A stretch of DNA of 64,000 nt, taken from assembly GCA_964626465.1 (NCBI GenBank), contig CAZVFP010000001.1, forward strand, positions 24,932 to 88,931, written 5' to 3'. Of this stretch, positions 10,960 through 19,406 are shown piece after piece. The notes under the pieces are model-generated. The model had not been told where the DNA came from. It saw only the letters and a list, made by a program, of their open reading frames with translations, and searched no databases. The stretch comes from an uncultured Bacteriovoracaceae bacterium (GTDB taxonomy: Bacteria > Bdellovibrionota > UBA2394). Made by a program: the position numbers and the translations under genes. Positions within the stretch are counted from its first letter, which is position 1; every line of letters begins with the position of its first letter.

Positions 10960-11072
10960 TTCTTGGTTCCTTGTCTTATTTCTTGGGAGGAAAGCATGAA
11001 TGTATCACTCCGTCTACAGGAAGATCTTTGAGAAGGCTTGCTGTTTGAATTTTCATCGTTCAGAATTTGAGA

Positions 11073-11771
11073 ATGATAGAGCTCTTTCAGTTTCCCGGTT
11101 TGAACAAGTCTTTGAGTATGAGTCCATTTTGTACGAAGGTTGAACTTTATCTTAAGATGACGGGTTTGCCGTACAAGAATCATTTTATTATGGATCCTCG
11201 TCCCGGGCCGAAGGGAAAAGCTCCGTATATCGTCGATGGTGATTTAAGAATCGGTGATTCACATTTGATCATTCAGTACTTGAAGAAAAAATATGGAGAT
11301 TCTTTAGATGCACATCTTTCGCCTGTCGAGCGTGCGACGGCTCTCGCGTTTCAGCGCTTGATGGAAGAAGATCTATATTGGGCGCTACTCTACGCGCGGT
11401 GGGGCGACGAGAACGGATATGCAAAAATGAAAGAGATCATTGGAAAGAATCTTCCGTTTTTTTTGCGTTCCTTCATCATGGGTAAGATTCGCAAAAACTT
11501 ATTGAGACAGGGATATGGTCACGGAATGATGAGGCATTCCGCTGATGAGATTTATGCTCGCGGCATCGAAAATTTAACGGCGGTTCGAGATTTTTTGGGG
11601 ACTAAGAAATATATGATGGGTGATCGGCCCTGCTCGCTTGATGCGACGGCTTTTGGATTTCTGCAGGCGATCAAGGACAGTCTCGTGCCAAATGTTTATC
11701 AGACATTCGTTTCATCTCATGGGAACCTGTCTGCCTATTGCGACCGTTTAAAGGCTGACTACTTTTCTTAA
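11073..11771 (+). CDS. Glutathione S-transferase-like (thioredoxin-fold N-terminal domain) protein.
   Basis: N-terminus MIELFQFPGLNKSLSMSPFCTKVELYLKMTGLPY resembles the GST_N/metaxin-like SPF motif. C-terminal helical domain. Confidence 0.65.
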   Translation: MIELFQFPGLNKSLSMSPFCTKVELYLKMTGLPYKNHFIMDPRPGPKGKAPYIVDGDLRIGDSHLIIQYLKKKYGDSLDAHLSPVERATALAFQRLMEEDLYWALLYARWGDENGYAKMKEIIGKNLPFFLRSFIMGKIRKNLLRQGYGHGMMRHSADEIYARGIENLTAVRDFLGTKKYMMGDRPCSLDATAFGFLQAIKDSLVPNVYQTFVSSHGNLSAYCDRLKADYFS

Positions 11772-11818: not shown

Positions 11819-14800
11819 ATGTTGTCGTCATTGGTTTTTTCCCCGCTTAATCGAGTTAAATCCGTAGTTTATGCCTCCACGTTGGTTCTAGGACTCTGCC
11901 AGTCCGCCATTGGTGGAACCCTGACATATGATGTCAGTGGTCCAAATGGTGAGAATGGGCGCAATGGGCGCAACTATTCAGGTTCTAGTGCGGGGCACGG
12001 CAGAGATGGCGGTAATGCCGGTCCGGCAAGCAATGGTTCTGATGCTGGATCTGTTGATCTCTCGATGCAGGATCATTTCAATGAGGGGCAGGCTGGCCCA
12101 GCATCCGTCGTGATTCGATCCCGGATTCTTCCTTCAAATGGCGTTCTTCAGGAGTCGTCCGTGACTGAAAGGCTCTCGCCTGCAAGTCCACGAATTCGAA
12201 TTATTGCCCGCGGTGGAAAAGGTGGAGATGGTGGCCATGGTGGAAATGGTGAAGACGGAGGCCGAGGTCGCGACGGCACTGATGCAACTCGCTCCTCTCG
12301 TGGCACTGATGGAGGCCGTGGATATGATGGAGGAGATGGCGGAAATGGCACGCCCGGTGGAGATGGTGGCCGAGGCGGTCGCGTTGTTGTTCGGTTAGCT
12401 GCGACTGATTTGCATCTGGGATTTCTGCTCGAGACAATTGATGTCAACGGCGGACGAGGCGGTGCTGAGGGTGAAAATGGATCTGCAGGAAGCGGTGGCG
12501 CCGGGGGCTCTGGGGGAAGCTCGACGAGCTGGCAAGAAAAGACGGGTGAAAGAAGTATTTCTGTTTCTAACGGTGATGGATCTTTCAGTCACAGACGAGA
12601 GGATGTTTTTTCAACGAGATCGAATCCTGGCGGCAGTTCCGGGGCAAGTGGATCTGACGGTCGAAGTGGCCGTGGTGAAACTCATGCAGGAATGCCTGGA
12701 CCTGATGGATCTTTTGAATTTTTGGTGACGGAGAATAATGGACGAGTATCGAAGTATCATTCTGTCTCAGACCTTCGACTGATTTCCTACGAACTAATAG
12801 AGACTGACGAAGTGTCGAGAGATGGCATCATTGAGCCGAGTGAAAATTTGACCATTAGAAATATTGTCATTCAAAATACTGGAGAGATGCCAAGTCCCGC
12901 AGGCAAGGCTGCTGTTCTCATTGGGTTGCCCCAAGCGGATTGGCTCAAATTGCCAGCGCGAATTTCTATTCCGAGTCTAAAACATAATCAGACATTCACG
13001 ATTGTCGAAGATTATAAAATTCAAATAGCGCCTCTGACCGCCTTCCAACAAAATCGTCGGTGGGCACGTTCTGAAAGGATTGATCCGCAAGCATCAGTCA
13101 CAAGAGTTTATTACGATTATAAAAATTTTTCTCGTCAGCAGACAATTACGATCACTCTTCCCATCGAAATCTCAGAAATTAAGGTGCCAGAGACCTTGGC
13201 ACCAGGTGAACGTTCGGCCATTTCATTTCGAGTGAAAAATATTTCATCGAAACCTCTTGGATCGAGCACGGACGGAAAACGCGCTGTTGAAGTTCTTTTG
13301 GCGCAAAAATCTCAAACAGAACTTCCATTCCAATTTGAAGGTCTCAACGGTGAGGTTCAATTGACAAATGGTTTTGTGGAAAAGATTTTGTCTCTTAATC
13401 CAAACGACGAAACAGTGGTTGAAGGATATTTGCGAGTTCCTGAATCCATAGAACCCTATTCCTCGGTCGATTTTTCGGCGAGTTTGAAATTTCCGCAGCT
13501 TGGCAGTTTGGATGAGGCCCGCATTGTTCAAGAAAATACGACCCGGTTGCGCATTGGTCAGAAATATCGGTATACCCCCGGTGCGGATATTTTAATGATT
13601 GTGAACCACAATACTGAGCGAAATGAGATTCTTGCGTGGACCAATTTATTCAAGAAGCTGGGTTTGAAATTCGATATTTGGGATACCAATTACTATGGTT
13701 ATCTCAATCTAAAGAGAGCGCTGGATGATGATGGTTCGACGCTGATGAAACTTTATGCGCATAAAACCGTGATTCTTTTGAATAATAAATCAGATCGAGA
13801 GAAGTCGAAGATGGGATCCGATGCTCTTGACGCCGAAGAATTTGTCGAGGCGGCCTCGAAACGTCTCATGAACTTCTATGTGATTGGAGGGCAAGGTGGT
13901 GTCGATTTTCTGAAATGGCTGATGACGACGGATCCTGATTCGCAGGGACTTATCGAAAATCCATCAGATCTCGGTCAGTTGAAATCGACGCCGGCCTCTT
14001 TTGTTCGACACATCGATGTGAAGAAACCAAATGAGAAACGCTGGCTGAAGCGAAGCACGACGCTTTCTTCAAGCCTCTATGAGGCTTATCCGGATCAGCG
14101 CTTCGTTTTTGAAGGCCTGACGAATCGTGTCAACCATGCCTACGATCAGGTTGTGATCCGGACAACGATTGCTCCGGCCCGGGGACGTGCCTCATATCTG
14201 TCTCAGCCCGATGAAGAAGTCCATACGGAGGCGTTCGTCAATAGTGAAGCCAATATCAGGGCACTTCTCTTGAATTTGCCGATGAAGAAAAAGCTAAATT
14301 TGTTGGGCAAACTTAATGCCGTGCATCTGGAATCTGTGCCGCATGTCAGTGAATACCTTTATCAGGCTGTTTTGCACGATATAGTTGAAGAGATCGATCT
14401 TTGGCGAAGAGCTCCAAAGGCCTTTCATAAGACGAATCGTGTCGCAATGAATATGCAATATTTTTTGTCGTATGTTGATTCGCGATTTCGCTTTGCTCAA
14501 AATGATGTGAGCGATCAGATGAAGCTCTTGATCGCGTCTTTAGCGGCTATCGATTGTTATTTAGATGCCATACCCGATTCCGTACTCGAAGATTATCTTC
14601 GCGCAGATTTCGATCTTTGGATGGACACTCAGTGGCCAAAGATTTTTGAAGGTAATCATGGAACTGCAAAAAAACTTTTTGATGCCAAGAAAATGGCTCT
14701 GCGAAAAAGTATAAAAGCTCGTGGAAAGGTTCTCGTTGGGCTTGACGATGTCGAGGTGCTCAGACATTTGCTGGTGTTCCCAGCAAAACGAGAGTTGAAG

Positions 14801-14848
14801 ACGACGGACGAAATCTTGAAATACGGTAATTTGGTGGATAAGCCATGA
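11819..14848 (+). CDS. Large secreted protein (1009 aa) with N-terminal Gly/Asp-rich nonapeptide repeat block and an unknown ~700-aa C-terminal region.
   Basis: Signal peptide VYASTLVLGLCQSAIG. Period-9 repeats GGKGGDGGH / GGNGEDGGR / GYDGGDGGN / GTPGGDGGR. A second Gly/Ser-rich tract follows. Confidence 0.8.
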   Translation: MLSSLVFSPLNRVKSVVYASTLVLGLCQSAIGGTLTYDVSGPNGENGRNGRNYSGSSAGHGRDGGNAGPASNGSDAGSVDLSMQDHFNEGQAGPASVVIRSRILPSNGVLQESSVTERLSPASPRIRIIARGGKGGDGGHGGNGEDGGRGRDGTDATRSSRGTDGGRGYDGGDGGNGTPGGDGGRGGRVVVRLAATDLHLGFLLETIDVNGGRGGAEGENGSAGSGGAGGSGGSSTSWQEKTGERSISVSNGDGSFSHRREDVFSTRSNPGGSSGASGSDGRSGRGETHAGMPGPDGSFEFLVTENNGRVSKYHSVSDLRLISYELIETDEVSRDGIIEPSENLTIRNIVIQNTGEMPSPAGKAAVLIGLPQADWLKLPARISIPSLKHNQTFTIVEDYKIQIAPLTAFQQNRRWARSERIDPQASVTRVYYDYKNFSRQQTITITLPIEISEIKVPETLAPGERSAISFRVKNISSKPLGSSTDGKRAVEVLLAQKSQTELPFQFEGLNGEVQLTNGFVEKILSLNPNDETVVEGYLRVPESIEPYSSVDFSASLKFPQLGSLDEARIVQENTTRLRIGQKYRYTPGADILMIVNHNTERNEILAWTNLFKKLGLKFDIWDTNYYGYLNLKRALDDDGSTLMKLYAHKTVILLNNKSDREKSKMGSDALDAEEFVEAASKRLMNFYVIGGQGGVDFLKWLMTTDPDSQGLIENPSDLGQLKSTPASFVRHIDVKKPNEKRWLKRSTTLSSSLYEAYPDQRFVFEGLTNRVNHAYDQVVIRTTIAPARGRASYLSQPDEEVHTEAFVNSEANIRALLLNLPMKKKLNLLGKLNAVHLESVPHVSEYLYQAVLHDIVEEIDLWRRAPKAFHKTNRVAMNMQYFLSYVDSRFRFAQNDVSDQMKLLIASLAAIDCYLDAIPDSVLEDYLRADFDLWMDTQWPKIFEGNHGTAKKLFDAKKMALRKSIKARGKVLVGLDDVEVLRHLLVFPAKRELKTTDEILKYGNLVDKP
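12200..12560 (+). repeat. Coding low-complexity repeat: period-27-nt (nonapeptide) Gly/Asp-rich repeats followed by a Gly/Ser tract, inside the 1009-aa gene.
   Basis: Repeated ggtggagatggtggcc... units. They generate spurious antisense ORFs. Confidence 0.6.
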
Positions 14849-15807
14849 AAAAAAATCTCTTAAAAATATTTTCGTTGTTAACACTGTCACTTTTGATTTC
14901 ATCTGGTCTGGATTATTTGATGGCAGCAAATGCTGATTCAGAGAACGTTCCATGTCGTTCGGTATTGATTGGGGTTGGTCAGAGCTACTGGGGGCAATAT
15001 TTCTGCCATCAATGTAATCAACTTTATTCGGCCAGGCCAAATGTTCAGGGTCGTCAGCAATGTCCCACTTGCGGTAAAGCTCATGAAAGGCCAAGAGATG
15101 GATCGGATGATGCCATTAACTTACCGCATGATGAAGTCATTGTTGACGGAAAGCCATACTTAAGAATTTGGGTTCCAGAGGCGGCTATTGTTGTAGGTGA
15201 TCCTACGGCAAAGTTTGCTGGTAAGGGGGCGCTTCAGTCTTGTTTATTCTGTGGATCCAGCGGCTTTGCTATTGATAAAGCCTGCGGAGGTTGTGGTGCG
15301 CAGTTTGAGAAAGGCGCCGCGCGGTCAAAGGCTGTAAGAGTTCCTCAAGTTGTTCAGGCGTCGAGTCGTCCAACTTCTCAGGCAAAACCTGCGAGTGGCG
15401 CGAGCCGTGGCGTTAACCTCGCTGAGAAAAGAATGTCGGCCCCGGCTCCTTCACCGAACCTGCCGCATGAATTTAGGCCTATCCGCTCCAACAGCGGCTT
15501 GGCCGCTTTGAGATCCGTCTTAATTGGATCGAGCATTGGAGCGACCGCCCTTTCAGTAGCTGTTGGTCTCACTCTTTTTGGTCGCAGTCCTTATATCGCT
15601 GAAGGGCATGTGGTTGATGTTTCTGGGCCAGCGATCACGGTGACTTATACGGCGCGAAGAGGGCAACAACAGCAGCTGACATTTATAGCAGAGAATGTCG
15701 GCGTTCGAGTCGGCGATTCAGTGGAGTTACACGGGCGACGTTGGGGCAGCATCAAGGGCGGCGAAACGTCTGCCGGAATTATTTTGTCTCTCAAGCCGAA
15801 AGACTGA
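14845..15807 (+). CDS. Membrane protein with signal/anchor, two CxxC...CxxC zinc-ribbon-like motifs and one internal TM helix.
   Basis: CHQC...CPTC and CLFC...CGGC pairs. TM helix AALRSVLIGSSIGATALSVAVGLTLFG. ATGA overlap with the upstream giant gene. Confidence 0.65.
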   Translation: MKKNLLKIFSLLTLSLLISSGLDYLMAANADSENVPCRSVLIGVGQSYWGQYFCHQCNQLYSARPNVQGRQQCPTCGKAHERPRDGSDDAINLPHDEVIVDGKPYLRIWVPEAAIVVGDPTAKFAGKGALQSCLFCGSSGFAIDKACGGCGAQFEKGAARSKAVRVPQVVQASSRPTSQAKPASGASRGVNLAEKRMSAPAPSPNLPHEFRPIRSNSGLAALRSVLIGSSIGATALSVAVGLTLFGRSPYIAEGHVVDVSGPAITVTYTARRGQQQQLTFIAENVGVRVGDSVELHGRRWGSIKGGETSAGIILSLKPKD

Positions 15808-15915: not shown

Positions 15916-17538
15916 ATGCGTCAGTTTCTTTTTTCAGTGATCTTCTTATTTTCTGTATCAGCCTTTGGTGCTGAGATTCCATCAGGAAAACCCGCCAACT
16001 TCTGTCGCTTTTTTCTTGGATCTCTGAATGTGGAAAATGCGCATCCTCCGTATATGACGATTCCAGATCGGGTTGCTGAATATACGCCGATCAAGCACCT
16101 GGGATCAATTCGTGCGCGGGGATTGGCTGGCTCTCCGAATCGTCGTCTGCCCAATTGGACGCGAGAAAAAGTAGAGCTCAAGCTTGGGCAGTTACAGACT
16201 CTTTTGGGGCTCTGGCCTGAGAGGCCTGCGGTGCTTGGAATTGTGGAAGTGCGAGATGCGAGTATCACTGGCAAAATTGCAACTGCTCTTGGTTACAAGG
16301 AGCCGATCGTGAGTGCGAGCAGCAATGAGCGCGGAATGGATGTAGGATTGCTTCTTAATCCATCGCCGGAGCTGGAAATCGTGAGCACGCAAGAGGTGCC
16401 GCTGACTGGCCCAGAGTTTGCCAACTACAGAACAAGGAATTTGTTGGTCGTAAGTGTCTCCGTCGCACAACGTTTTTTACTTCACTTTGTTGTGGCTCAC
16501 TGGCCGTCGCAGGGAGGGCCGACCGAAGCTCGTGTTGAGGCGGCTCGTCAGACTCGAGCGCTGGTGGGCAAACTGAAGTCTGATTATCCTGGATCCGAAG
16601 CCATCGTCATGGGAGATTTTAATACTTTGGATTCTGAAAAAGATATTCTTGGTCGTCACCCTTTTCGAGATATTTTGCTTGAAGCAAATGGGGCTGCAAC
16701 TCTGGTGGATGCGTTTACGTTGGAATCAATGAGAGCTCCAGGAGCCCATCCAGAGGGAACTTACTACTACGCGCCGAATGATGAGTGGAATCGCCTTGAT
16801 CGATTTTTCGTGACGGATGGATTGCTTCGAAATCGCCCTAACGGACTTCGGCTTGTGAGCAAGACTTATCGCGTGAATGCTCCCGAGGCGGTGACTCACG
16901 AAGTGAAGCGCCGAGACGGATCAACAATTCGCGTACCTTTGAGATACGATCCAGAGGCAACAACGGCAGCGCGTGCAGGCTTTACGGATCATTTTGGAAT
17001 TTCTGTTGGAATTGAAGCGCATTGGCAGGATTCTGGCTTGGAGCGTGTGCGATTTCTTTTAGATCAAGACATTTTGCTGGCCAGATCGGTTATCCTCTTT
17101 CCGAAATCGCCAAAGGGGGCTCGTCGCTTCATCTCGTGGTCTGAGTATGTGGCAGAAAAAGATAAAATCGGCGTGGACGGTGCCAAGTTTGGAGCATTTG
17201 AGATTCGTGAGGGCGAGAGTTTCGTCCGATTGCGAGACGGAGATGATGGAAAAAATTGGTACTTCAATGATTTGAGATACGATAGCGAAGGCGGCGATAT
17301 TGAAAAAATCCGCGGTCCAAGGTGGGACGAATTTGTGGCTGCACTTGCAACGCCGGAATCCGCAAGGCGCGTTCTTCTGCATATTCCCGACTACAGAACA
17401 CATCGACCTGAGTCAGTCTATCAACTGCTGCTGGATTTGCGTGAAAAAGGAATCATTGCCGAATTGCCGCTTCTCGAAAATATAGAGCAGGCGCCTTCGA
17501 CAATGCCGGTCGATTTAGCTGAAACGAAGGCGAAATAG
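15916..17538 (+). CDS. Secreted endonuclease/exonuclease/phosphatase (EEP) family protein with extra C-terminal domain.
   Basis: Signal peptide. EEP motifs NVEN, GIVEV, VVAHW, MGDFN, DHFGI. A ~180-aa C-terminal extension follows. Confidence 0.8.
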   Translation: MRQFLFSVIFLFSVSAFGAEIPSGKPANFCRFFLGSLNVENAHPPYMTIPDRVAEYTPIKHLGSIRARGLAGSPNRRLPNWTREKVELKLGQLQTLLGLWPERPAVLGIVEVRDASITGKIATALGYKEPIVSASSNERGMDVGLLLNPSPELEIVSTQEVPLTGPEFANYRTRNLLVVSVSVAQRFLLHFVVAHWPSQGGPTEARVEAARQTRALVGKLKSDYPGSEAIVMGDFNTLDSEKDILGRHPFRDILLEANGAATLVDAFTLESMRAPGAHPEGTYYYAPNDEWNRLDRFFVTDGLLRNRPNGLRLVSKTYRVNAPEAVTHEVKRRDGSTIRVPLRYDPEATTAARAGFTDHFGISVGIEAHWQDSGLERVRFLLDQDILLARSVILFPKSPKGARRFISWSEYVAEKDKIGVDGAKFGAFEIREGESFVRLRDGDDGKNWYFNDLRYDSEGGDIEKIRGPRWDEFVAALATPESARRVLLHIPDYRTHRPESVYQLLLDLREKGIIAELPLLENIEQAPSTMPVDLAETKAK

Positions 17539-17569: not shown

Positions 17570-18661
17570 TTGAGGACGATGCTCGCGTATTTATCGGCCG
17601 TGTATTTTTCAGTTGTGTCTCAGACAAATGTTTTGGCTGAGACGCTTCCGACCTGCTCAACAAATGCGTCGATCGTTCAGCAAACCAACAAAATTTTTGA
17701 GAAATCGGCAAAGAAACTGGAAAATCGGCGAGTGTTTCTTCCGCTGAGCCAGATGCCTTTGTCCCTTAATTCATTGGATGCCGTAGCGTTCAATCCCAGC
17801 GATCGCTCTCGCTTGACTCAGATCTCTCTCATTCTGCAGATTTCGGTCATCCACGTGAGTGGAGAAGGTTCAAGAAGTCTCAGTGACGTGACGATTTCGC
17901 GCCAACGTTCTGATTTTATGACGTCGGTATCGCAAGAGATGAAGCAAAAAAAATTTTCAGTGAATTCGAATTTGCCACCCATTTTACCGCACCAACTTTT
18001 TCCTCTTGAGGCAGCGTTTAGCTCGACCAATCAAGCAGCTTATGCGAGTGCTTTTGTTGCCCCGGGCCGGGTGCTCGGCGAGGGGCGATTTACTTCCCTC
18101 ACTCCCCTCCTTCTGTTCAAAGATTTTTCGGATAAAACAGGTATCTTAAAAGAGATGATCAATGCTCTCATTTGGAAGCAGAGAGCTCAGAAGGGTTTGA
18201 TGGATCCATGGTCTGTGACTTTTCATTTTCAAAATCCTGACGATTATGAATTCTTGAGAGAGAATGAGCAGGAAGAGTTTTTGCTGCGGCCGACGCATTA
18301 TGTGCCAAAACTCTTCGAGAGAAGCCAACGATTTTATGATCAACTGGCGATTCAGTTTGATGCGCAGTGGCTGCTCTTTGAGAACTCCGAGTATTGGGGA
18401 CTCTCTGGGACTGTTCGAAGGGAGGCCCTTGAGAATCTGCGTGCAATTTTGGGAAGTCCTTATGAGGGTGGCGTGGATGGATCAGTGGGACTCGTCAAGC
18501 TGGTCGGAGATATTTCATCTCGAATTGGAGCATTGGCGTCTAGGCCTGATGGATTCAAAGATCCTCGTCTCGATGGCCAGCTTCGTGAGTTCGAAAGCTG
18601 GCTCCGCCAGCGAAAGGCATCTGTAGATGCCGCTTATGCGTGGCTTCAAAAACAGAATTAA
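17570..18661 (+). CDS. Secreted hypothetical protein.
   Basis: 363-aa ORF. Signal peptide ending VLAETLP. Confidence 0.6.
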   Translation: MRTMLAYLSAVYFSVVSQTNVLAETLPTCSTNASIVQQTNKIFEKSAKKLENRRVFLPLSQMPLSLNSLDAVAFNPSDRSRLTQISLILQISVIHVSGEGSRSLSDVTISRQRSDFMTSVSQEMKQKKFSVNSNLPPILPHQLFPLEAAFSSTNQAAYASAFVAPGRVLGEGRFTSLTPLLLFKDFSDKTGILKEMINALIWKQRAQKGLMDPWSVTFHFQNPDDYEFLRENEQEEFLLRPTHYVPKLFERSQRFYDQLAIQFDAQWLLFENSEYWGLSGTVRREALENLRAILGSPYEGGVDGSVGLVKLVGDISSRIGALASRPDGFKDPRLDGQLREFESWLRQRKASVDAAYAWLQKQN

Positions 18662-18734
18662 TTCATAGGCTTTGCTCGCCGACTTGTGTTCCTTCGGGCT
18701 TAGTGTTGCAATGGTAGTCTTGGGGGAACAGTTT

Positions 18735-19406
18735 ATGAGGTTATATGCGCTTATTTTGTCGTTTTTTTTATCCTGTCTCGGGCTCTTCAGAAACGAATTT
18801 GACGTTCTAGCCAGCGTGAATCCGAAGGAATCAAAACGCAATTTTAAGCCTGTGAATTCTCCCTCTCCTTCGCCTGAGGCGAGTGATAAGCCGTCGTCGG
18901 GTGGGGTGACAAAAACAGAGACCGGACTCCCCGGCACTAAATCTACTTTTAATTTTGTGGATGGTGGCGATCGTCGGGCTTTGGAATATTCGGTTCAGGT
19001 GGGTTGCCAAACCGTGACTGGAAGTAGTTTGGCCAATCGTTATGAACTGGAAGTTTGTATTAGCCCAGATTTCAAGACACGAGTTTTTTCTTTGAAAGTT
19101 TCTGTTCAGTGTGATGACGAGAAAGATCCGTCGAAGGTGATTGCAGCAATGGGTCTTTTGTCGCGTCGAGCAGAACATTATTGTGTGACTGAAAAGGCTC
19201 ACAACTTAAGCTATAAAGAATCCTGCGGGTATGAGCCCATGGCAGCCTGTGGGGGTGATTGGTACAGCACTAAAGGAACGAATTGCCAGCGAGAGAATAT
19301 CAAATATTGTTGTAGTCCTGGTGTCGATTGTAGTCGCTATCAGAAGGAGTTCGATCTGAATCGAATTATTAAGTATTCGGAAGAACCCATATGGCCATCG
19401 TTTTAG
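18735..19406 (+). CDS. Cys-rich small secreted protein/lipoprotein, hypothetical.
   Basis: Start chosen at MRLYALILSFFLSCLG, which is preceded by a GGGGGA Shine-Dalgarno-like run. About 12 Cys in the mature part. Confidence 0.5.
   Translation: MRLYALILSFFLSCLGLFRNEFDVLASVNPKESKRNFKPVNSPSPSPEASDKPSSGGVTKTETGLPGTKSTFNFVDGGDRRALEYSVQVGCQTVTGSSLANRYELEVCISPDFKTRVFSLKVSVQCDDEKDPSKVIAAMGLLSRRAEHYCVTEKAHNLSYKESCGYEPMAACGGDWYSTKGTNCQRENIKYCCSPGVDCSRYQKEFDLNRIIKYSEEPIWPSF

Follow-up and report, generated by a model that had tools for sequence, protein, structure and literature searches.

A glycine-triplet protein of the DUF7932 family and its proposed membrane partner, encoded by tightly coupled genes in a Bdellovibrionota clade

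The window analysed here is a stretch of 64,000 nucleotides from an uncultured Bacteriovoracaceae bacterium of the Bdellovibrionota (assembly GCA_964626465.1, contig CAZVFP010000001.1). It contains two overlapping genes, which we call A and B. Gene A encodes a large protein with a glycine-rich N-terminal domain, and gene B encodes a Cys-rich membrane protein. An earlier note on this DNA had placed here open reading frames (ORFs) of 1009 aa and 320 aa joined by an ATGA overlap, and these positions and sizes were borne out. The junction between the stop codon of A and the start codon of B reads CCATGAAA, which gives the ATGA overlap. The two genes and the leader of A are as follows, in window positions.

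11819..14848, + strand: gene A, a 1009-aa multidomain protein of a DUF7932-containing family (from the ORF, its homologues and an AlphaFold2 [AF2] model)
11819..11911, + strand: Sec-type signal peptide of A, about residues 1-31 (from hydropathy, the leaders of orthologues and the model)
14845..15807, + strand: gene B, a 320-aa putative type-I membrane protein (from the ORF; its ATG overlaps the TGA of A)

The gene pair and the family of protein A

Comparison of loci revealed that A and B belong together in one lineage. Each of the 13 loci of a single signal-peptide-bearing Bdellovibrionota clade has a B homologue directly downstream of A and in the same orientation. The pairing was seen in the window and at the loci that we labelled L001, L004, L007-L014 and L070. 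Between the two genes, 12 of the 13 loci have a gap of -4 to +11 nt, with ATGA, TAATG or a start preceded by GGAG at the junction, and the start at L011 is ambiguous. Paired A proteins share 29-41% identity with A of the window, and in a neighbour-joining tree they form a single 15-leaf clade with no known unpaired member inside. The reciprocal look-up agrees with this. Upstream of the B homologue P0124 there is a 997-aa DUF7932 gene with a 4-nt overlap, and a DUF7932 gene lies immediately upstream in 13 of the 14 B loci examined. Thus, the conserved, tightly coupled pair that the earlier note had proposed is found throughout the clade. Outside the clade, B is absent beside A, as observed for signal-peptide-bearing proteins of 1100 aa from other Bdellovibrionota (L005, L068 and L069), for Myxococcota (L002, L003 and L006) and for Pirellulaceae, and no other conserved functional gene was found among the neighbours of A there.

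The signal peptide that had been claimed for A is also present. The N-terminal leader reaches a Kyte-Doolittle maximum of 2.09 (12-residue window) at residue 16, and its h-region, residues 16-27, is moderately hydrophobic. The closest relatives of A, the clade orthologues, have clear, textbook Sec leaders with AxA-type sites. In the AF2 model of full-length A (mean predicted local distance difference test [pLDDT] 86.4, predicted template modelling score [pTM] 0.70), the N-terminus has low pLDDT and forms a separate helix at residues 11-26. We ruled out a lipoprotein, since the candidate motif LGLC has Leu at position -1 and its Cys is not conserved in the N-termini of the orthologues.

The family to which A belongs has at least 399 clusters of homologues, with proteins of about 950-1200 aa whose sole Pfam domain is DUF7932 (PF25560). 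Where a source is named, it is a member of the Bdellovibrionota or the Myxococcota (Labilithrix, Polyangiaceae and Kofleriaceae), and every named entry is annotated as hypothetical. A genome scan found an A homologue in about 50 Pirellulaceae species as well; its single pattern was built from 13 sequences and skews the sample toward Pirellulaceae. The family is widespread in Myxococcota, Planctomycetota and Bdellovibrionota, and DUF7932 is catalogued yet uncharacterised. In the literature we found no paper mentioning DUF7932 and none on polyproline-II (PPII) bundles in these three phyla. The Myxococcota and Pirellulaceae homologues have no signal peptide. Myxococcota N-termini read M(V/P/S)xYR(Q/E/D) followed by an acidic linker of about 20 aa, and those of Pirellulaceae carry a conserved (H/R)xxDAGCFASDGE motif. 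These phylum-specific, polar N-termini could be alternative targeting or modification signals.

Domains of A and B outside the glycine region

About 700 aa of A had been regarded as unannotatable. This does not hold for residues 319-445, which match DUF7932 at 59.9 bits against a cut-off of 27, the sole Pfam match in A. The remaining domains were assigned from the model and the family alignment.

12773..13159, + strand: immunoglobulin (Ig)-like beta-sandwich 1, corresponding to Pfam DUF7932, residues 319-447, with invariant E339-P340, N353, P358 and P360
13160..13558, + strand: Ig-like (CARDB/FW-like) beta-sandwich 2, residues 448-580
13559..13933, + strand: flavodoxin-like alpha/beta domain, residues 581-705, with conserved L592, N596, W607, W621 and D622
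14024..14845, + strand: C-terminal alpha+beta subdomain (residues 736-835) and helical bundle (residues 836-1009), the least conserved region

Searches of Pfam, NCBIfam, PADLOC and PHROGs, together with PDB sequence and fold searches, assigned no enzyme or toxin family to A, and NCBIfam and PHROGs gave no match at all. No enzyme family was recognised in the C-terminal 430 residues, and the alpha+beta subdomain and the helical bundle had no family or fold match in profile and fold searches. A PADLOC match to PDC-M58A (E 0.0076) was dismissed, being absent from all 44 relatives scanned. In PDB sequence searches, both single-sequence and profile, just Gly/Ser linkers and collagen were returned, with non-significant E-values.

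Protein B was correctly described beforehand as having two CxxC...CxxC pairs (CxxC at 54, 73, 133 and 147), one transmembrane (TM) helix and a C-terminal domain. Its hydrophobic segments are residues 4-26, the leader, and 224-245, the TM helix.

14845..14931, + strand: signal peptide of B, residues 1-29, with the predicted cleavage ANA|DS (from hydropathy; AxA-type sites occur in all 10 orthologues)
15004..15072, + strand: Cys4 ribbon 1, C54xxC57 ... C73xxC76 (sub-threshold Zn_ribbon_19, E 6e-4)
15241..15294, + strand: Cys4 ribbon 2, C133xxC136 ... C147xxC150 (sub-threshold DZR_2)
15514..15579, + strand: TM helix, residues 224-245 (Kyte-Doolittle 1.76 in a 19-residue window; its place after a variable linker is conserved)
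15592..15804, + strand: C-terminal domain, small (about 75 aa), beta-rich and predicted cytoplasmic, with conserved RVGE.V.V...W..GA.R..G

In 10 B orthologues, the leader, the eight Cys, the TM helix and the small C-terminal domain are all conserved. All matches of B were below the curated cut-offs: Zn_ribbon_19 (20.3 of 30.8 bits), DZR_2 (13.6 of 27 bits) and TIGR02605 (13.8 of 31.3 bits). A word-indexed search with B returned B alone; we therefore used an exhaustive phmmer search of 1.84 billion proteins for the B family, which found 32 representatives only. A candidate relative of 1329 aa (P0131) was rejected as a spurious repeat match. Because the ribbons lie behind a cleavable signal peptide and are predicted to be periplasmic, they may be disulfide-bonded instead of zinc-bound. 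A protein of 411 aa (P0145, at 1003-2238 of locus L075) has a leader and a double CxxC ectodomain like those of B, followed after the TM helix by a much larger, unrelated C-terminal domain, and there is no A nearby. This indicates that the Cys-rich ectodomain can exist apart from A.

The flavodoxin-like domain raises the question of signalling. A could be a periplasmic ligand-binding or sensor protein whose flavodoxin-like domain, similar in fold to receiver and Toll/interleukin-1 receptor (TIR) domains, serves with the helical C-terminus as the functional head, and B would then relay the signal through its cytoplasmic domain. However, the consensus of the domain has N..TT at the end of beta1 instead of DD and LNN at the receiver phospho-acceptor position, and no conserved TIR-type catalytic Glu is evident in the family alignment. 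Furthermore, near the A-B loci there is no conserved gene for a sigma factor, kinase or regulator, and the C-terminus is alike in family members that have no B. We consider such a signalling pair unlikely.

The glycine-triplet domain

The region between the leader and the DUF7932 sandwich is the best-conserved part of A. It contains the following features.

11912..12772, + strand: glycine-triplet domain, residues 32-318, with a predicted compact fold of beta-sheets and non-alpha/non-beta Gly segments
11939..12049, + strand: Gly block 0, residues 41-77, made up of Gxx triplets (at high pLDDT, DSSP assigns it neither helix nor strand)
12212..12382, + strand: Gly blocks 1-2, residues 132-188, with four GGx, four Gxx, a conserved DATRYSSG-type loop and then nine GGx/Gxx triplets
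12449..12523, + strand: Gly block 3, residues 211-235, then a conserved SSYSW motif containing W238 (from the alignment and Gly periodicity)
12629..12709, + strand: Gly block 4, residues 271-297, after a conserved SNPGG motif (from the alignment and Gly periodicity)

The period of this domain is three. Gly-Gly coincidences in residues 36-305 number 43 at lag 3 against 17.9 expected, and 34, 31 and 23 at lags 6, 9 and 12, respectively. In 81 homologues of 25-41% identity, the Gly register GG.GG.GG.GG.GG.G..G..G is near-invariant, and Gly is invariant at positions 132, 133, 135, 138, 144, 147, 150, 153, 165 and 168. The consensus of this alignment is GG.GG.GG.GG.GG.G..G..G-DATRYSSG-.DGG.GGDGGDGG.GTSG..GG.GG, and block 132-188 is exactly 57 aa in all 14 homologues that we printed. 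It is this block that the earlier note had read as at least six nonapeptides. A dominant period of nine was not found; what stands of the reading is a weak lag-9 superperiod within the block. Its non-Gly residues show 8 identities at lag 9, above lags 3 and 6 (p about 0.003-0.009 against shuffled non-Gly residues), and the program TRF finds in its DNA a 27-nt unit repeated 1.9 times and a 9-nt unit repeated 4.4 times. Across the family the superperiod is weak, with p<0.05 in 21 of the 81 members. It would correspond to one short helix plus a turn. The Gly/Ser tract that had been described after the repeats is not a linker: residues 211-235 and 271-297 are further conserved triplet blocks. On the opposite strand, a 99-aa Pro/Ser-rich ORF (PPSPP...; window 12148-12447, - strand) faces the Gly blocks, apparently as a side effect of GGN codons read from the other strand, and similar antisense ORFs lie opposite A in most loci.

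Structure prediction gave a confident fold for this region. The Gly domain modelled alone with AF2 has pLDDT 96.0 and pTM 0.83, and about 150 residues of the Gly blocks are assigned neither helix nor strand by DSSP at very high pLDDT. In two AF2 models (pLDDT 86 and 96), residues 41-77, 130-187, 209-235 and 270-297 contain no strand of three or more residues, with isolated single-residue bridges at most. The repeat block was thus predicted to have neither the strands of a beta-roll nor disorder. This absence of helix and strand at very high confidence, in the best-conserved region of A, rules out disorder and argues against a beta-roll. The earlier note had said beforehand that it would fail on a disordered block without conserved pairing, or on a known enzyme family at the C-terminus. 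Neither was the case, as the block is predicted to be folded, the two genes stay paired across the clade and no known enzyme was recognised at the C-terminus.

Runs of Gly at every third residue suggest a collagen-like protein, in which Gly-X-Y runs would form an inter-chain triple helix and A would be a trimeric fibre or stalk. The sole PDB sequence match points the same way (collagen IX, E 0.59), and database entries for some family fragments, as at NCBI, carry the label collagen-like protein. However, GGx runs comprise 4, 2, 3, 2 and 3 triplets and Gxx runs 4-9, so that the longest run is 9 triplets; they are rich in GGx, poor in Pro and broken by beta-strands. Pfam Collagen had no match in 45 family members, and the Gly domain is modelled as a compact monomer. 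A collagen-like fibre is therefore very unlikely.

The earlier note had preferred a beta-roll akin to those of repeats-in-toxin (RTX) proteins, built from Gly/Asp nonapeptides and possibly Ca2+-binding, in a secreted effector with B as partner or chaperone. It had also observed that the conserved hydrophobic RTX position is missing, and this was correct: GGxGxDx[LIVFMYW]x has zero matches in A. HemolysinCabind (PF00353) has no match at E<=0.1 in A or 45 relatives, and the family conserves the triplet, not the nonapeptide. In addition, the Gly blocks have no beta-strands in the models, A has a Sec leader at its N-terminus, no type I secretion system (T1SS) gene occurs in the eight neighbouring ORFs scanned, and no effector domain was found. 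We regard the RTX reading as highly improbable. That the Gly region is merely disordered low-complexity sequence in an incidental gene neighbour is hardly credible: residues 1-310 are rich in Gly (24%) and Ser (13.5%), and a similarity search with the Gly domain as query was dominated by Gly-rich words and yielded fragments, but the Gly register is invariant or near-invariant over three phyla in the best-conserved region of A at pLDDT 96, and the adjacency is kept in 13 of 13 clade loci despite the divergence of A. Specific tests contradict each of these three readings, and we take the Gly domain to be neither an RTX beta-roll nor a collagen triple helix nor a disordered linker.

What, then, does the triplet build? 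Gly-rich PPII bundles are recognised in sequence by their consecutive GGX or GXX motifs (PMC13243192; PMC11364801). Known Gly-rich PPII or polyglycine-II (PGII) bundles are the antifreeze protein of snow fleas (sfAFP), the Granisotoma antifreeze protein (GrAFP), gp38 of phage S16 and ALK/LTK (PMC13243192; PMC11364801). The motif rule of PMC13243192, two or more consecutive GGX or GXX with conserved Gly, holds for A and is conserved in the 81 sequences. From this signature and the models we infer that the GGx/Gxx runs are short PGII/PPII-type helices packed side by side against beta-sheets. Fold searches found no solved PPII bundle similar in structure to the Gly domain, which is plausibly a new bacterial variant of this rare class.

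Proposed roles, surroundings and known systems

We propose that A and B make up an operon of two genes, confined to one clade of Bdellovibrionota, in which A is a Sec-exported, non-enzymatic envelope protein with a rigid folded Gly module and B is its clade-specific type-I membrane partner. We give this proposal as a whole a probability of about 45%. Protein A would begin with the Gly module and continue with two Ig-like spacer domains, a flavodoxin-like domain that lacks the receiver signature and has no evident TIR-type one, and a C-terminus of helices. Protein B would consist of a cleavable leader, a Cys8 ectodomain with two CxxC...CxxC pairs, one TM helix and a small cytoplasmic domain. 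Translational coupling would produce matched amounts of the two proteins, and the ectodomain of B may bind A on the periplasmic side of the inner membrane and so anchor or position it. The pair would thus have a binding or structural role. Since both A and B carry Sec-type leaders, the idea of an exported protein with a membrane partner, already put forward in the earlier note, is reasonable; its term effector is not, as no enzymatic or toxin domain was detected.

Several points weigh against this proposal. Most members of the A family have neither a signal peptide nor B, which also speaks against an effector. This suggests that the core function of A needs neither B nor export and may be cytoplasmic. 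Cys4 ribbons are usually zinc-binding in the cytoplasm, and the exported place of those in B is unusual. The flavodoxin-like domain, being conserved, could have an unrecognised activity. Because the family occurs in two other phyla without leader or B, export and B are best seen as clade-specific additions, not as the functional core.

A more specific proposal is possible but doubtful. The N-terminal 280 residues may be an undescribed bacterial PPII/PGII bundle domain, with on the order of 15 short helices on beta-sheets, present in several hundred proteins of three phyla; in Bdellovibrio-like predators it may have been moved to the envelope with B as a dedicated Cys-rich type-I membrane receptor, possibly with a surface, periplasmic or prey-contact role. 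If so, the Gly domain would be, to our knowledge, among the largest natural families of PPII/PGII bundles. Folded bundles of this kind are rare, comprising a handful of antifreeze proteins, phage adhesins and ALK/LTK receptors, and they are of interest for protein design and for understanding Gly-rich sequence dismissed as low-complexity. A deeply conserved bacterial family with a large PPII-type domain would widen the class and give many natural sequences. In gaining a signal peptide together with a coupled membrane partner, the Bdellovibrionota clade offers a clean natural experiment, which points to a module relocated to the envelope. The result also corrects a tempting RTX or collagen-like mis-annotation of DUF7932 family proteins.

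The scanned neighbours of A are a glutathione S-transferase (GST), gene B, an endonuclease/exonuclease/phosphatase (EEP) hydrolase and proteins of unknown function.

11067..11771, + strand: GST family protein (GST_N_4/GST_C_6, Tom37-like; E 4.6e-31), immediately upstream of A
15916..17538, + strand: 540-aa protein, starting 108 nt after B, with a hydrophobic leader at its N-terminus and Exo_endo_phos_3 (E 1.4e-24, residues 80-366); a further 170 aa or so at the C-terminus match no family
17570..18661 and 18672..19406, + strand: ORFs of 363 and 244 aa without Pfam or NCBIfam match, whose N-termini we read as hydrophobic

The GST gene is not conserved beside A in the other loci examined. The Exo_endo_phos_3 protein is probably outside the pair, because it follows B at locus L071 and not at other A-B loci. 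The region downstream of B looks rich in uncharacterised exported proteins. Locus L071 (GCA_013565695.1, contig JACCDT011644356.1; 17 kb) carries B of the window together with the genes that follow it and, before it, the 3' end of its upstream neighbour. Its contig numbering implies millions of contigs, and it may be bacterial sequence in a large, possibly eukaryotic, assembly. At L002/L003 (9986-15330), from a Myxococcales metagenome-assembled genome, the A homologue is followed by a trio of MukF-like, unknown and MukB-like genes, seen in this lineage only, which we take to resemble Wadjet/JetABC. Near A in Planctomycetota and in Myxococcota, recurrent genes encode a sulfatase, a Ser/Thr kinase, MotA/ExbB, a DNA ligase and what we read from its sequence as a 4HBT-type thioesterase; they were considered as a system and rejected, as they look like lineage synteny. 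A MoxR ATPase found 3-5 kb upstream in 5 loci was also rejected as a partner; we treated it as coincidental because unrelated or opposite-strand genes lie between it and A.

Comparison with known systems places A and B as follows. CheY-like receiver domains have a flavodoxin-like fold as A does, and identity to receiver and TIR domains is 9-13%; the acidic pocket and the phospho-acceptor Asp are replaced in A and there is no Pfam match. Zinc-ribbon membrane proteins of the FmdB and DZR types resemble B in having two CxxC...CxxC pairs and a TM helix, and B matches Zn_ribbon_19, DZR_2 and FmdB weakly. The Pfam entry DUF7932 spans one Ig-like sandwich only and has no function, and the Gly domain and the C-terminal 430 aa of A are in no curated family. 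Bacterial collagen-like proteins (Scl1/2 and BclA) have Gly at every third position as A does, but in A the runs are short and broken. The RTX beta-roll and A are both Gly/Asp-rich with GGxGxD strings and a local 9-residue superperiod; in contrast, A conserves period 3 and has its repeats at the N-terminus behind a Sec leader, whereas RTX repeats are C-terminal and accompanied by a T1SS. The closest likeness is to PPII bundles: snow-flea AFP (3BOG), Granisotoma AFP (7JJV), phage S16 gp38 (6F45), the Gly-rich domain of ALK/LTK (7LS0/7N00) and the predicted PE_PGRS have GGX/GXX runs as in A. They also share with A strictly conserved Gly on the predicted helix-packing faces, confident non-alpha/non-beta segments and an occurrence in extracellular or exported proteins.

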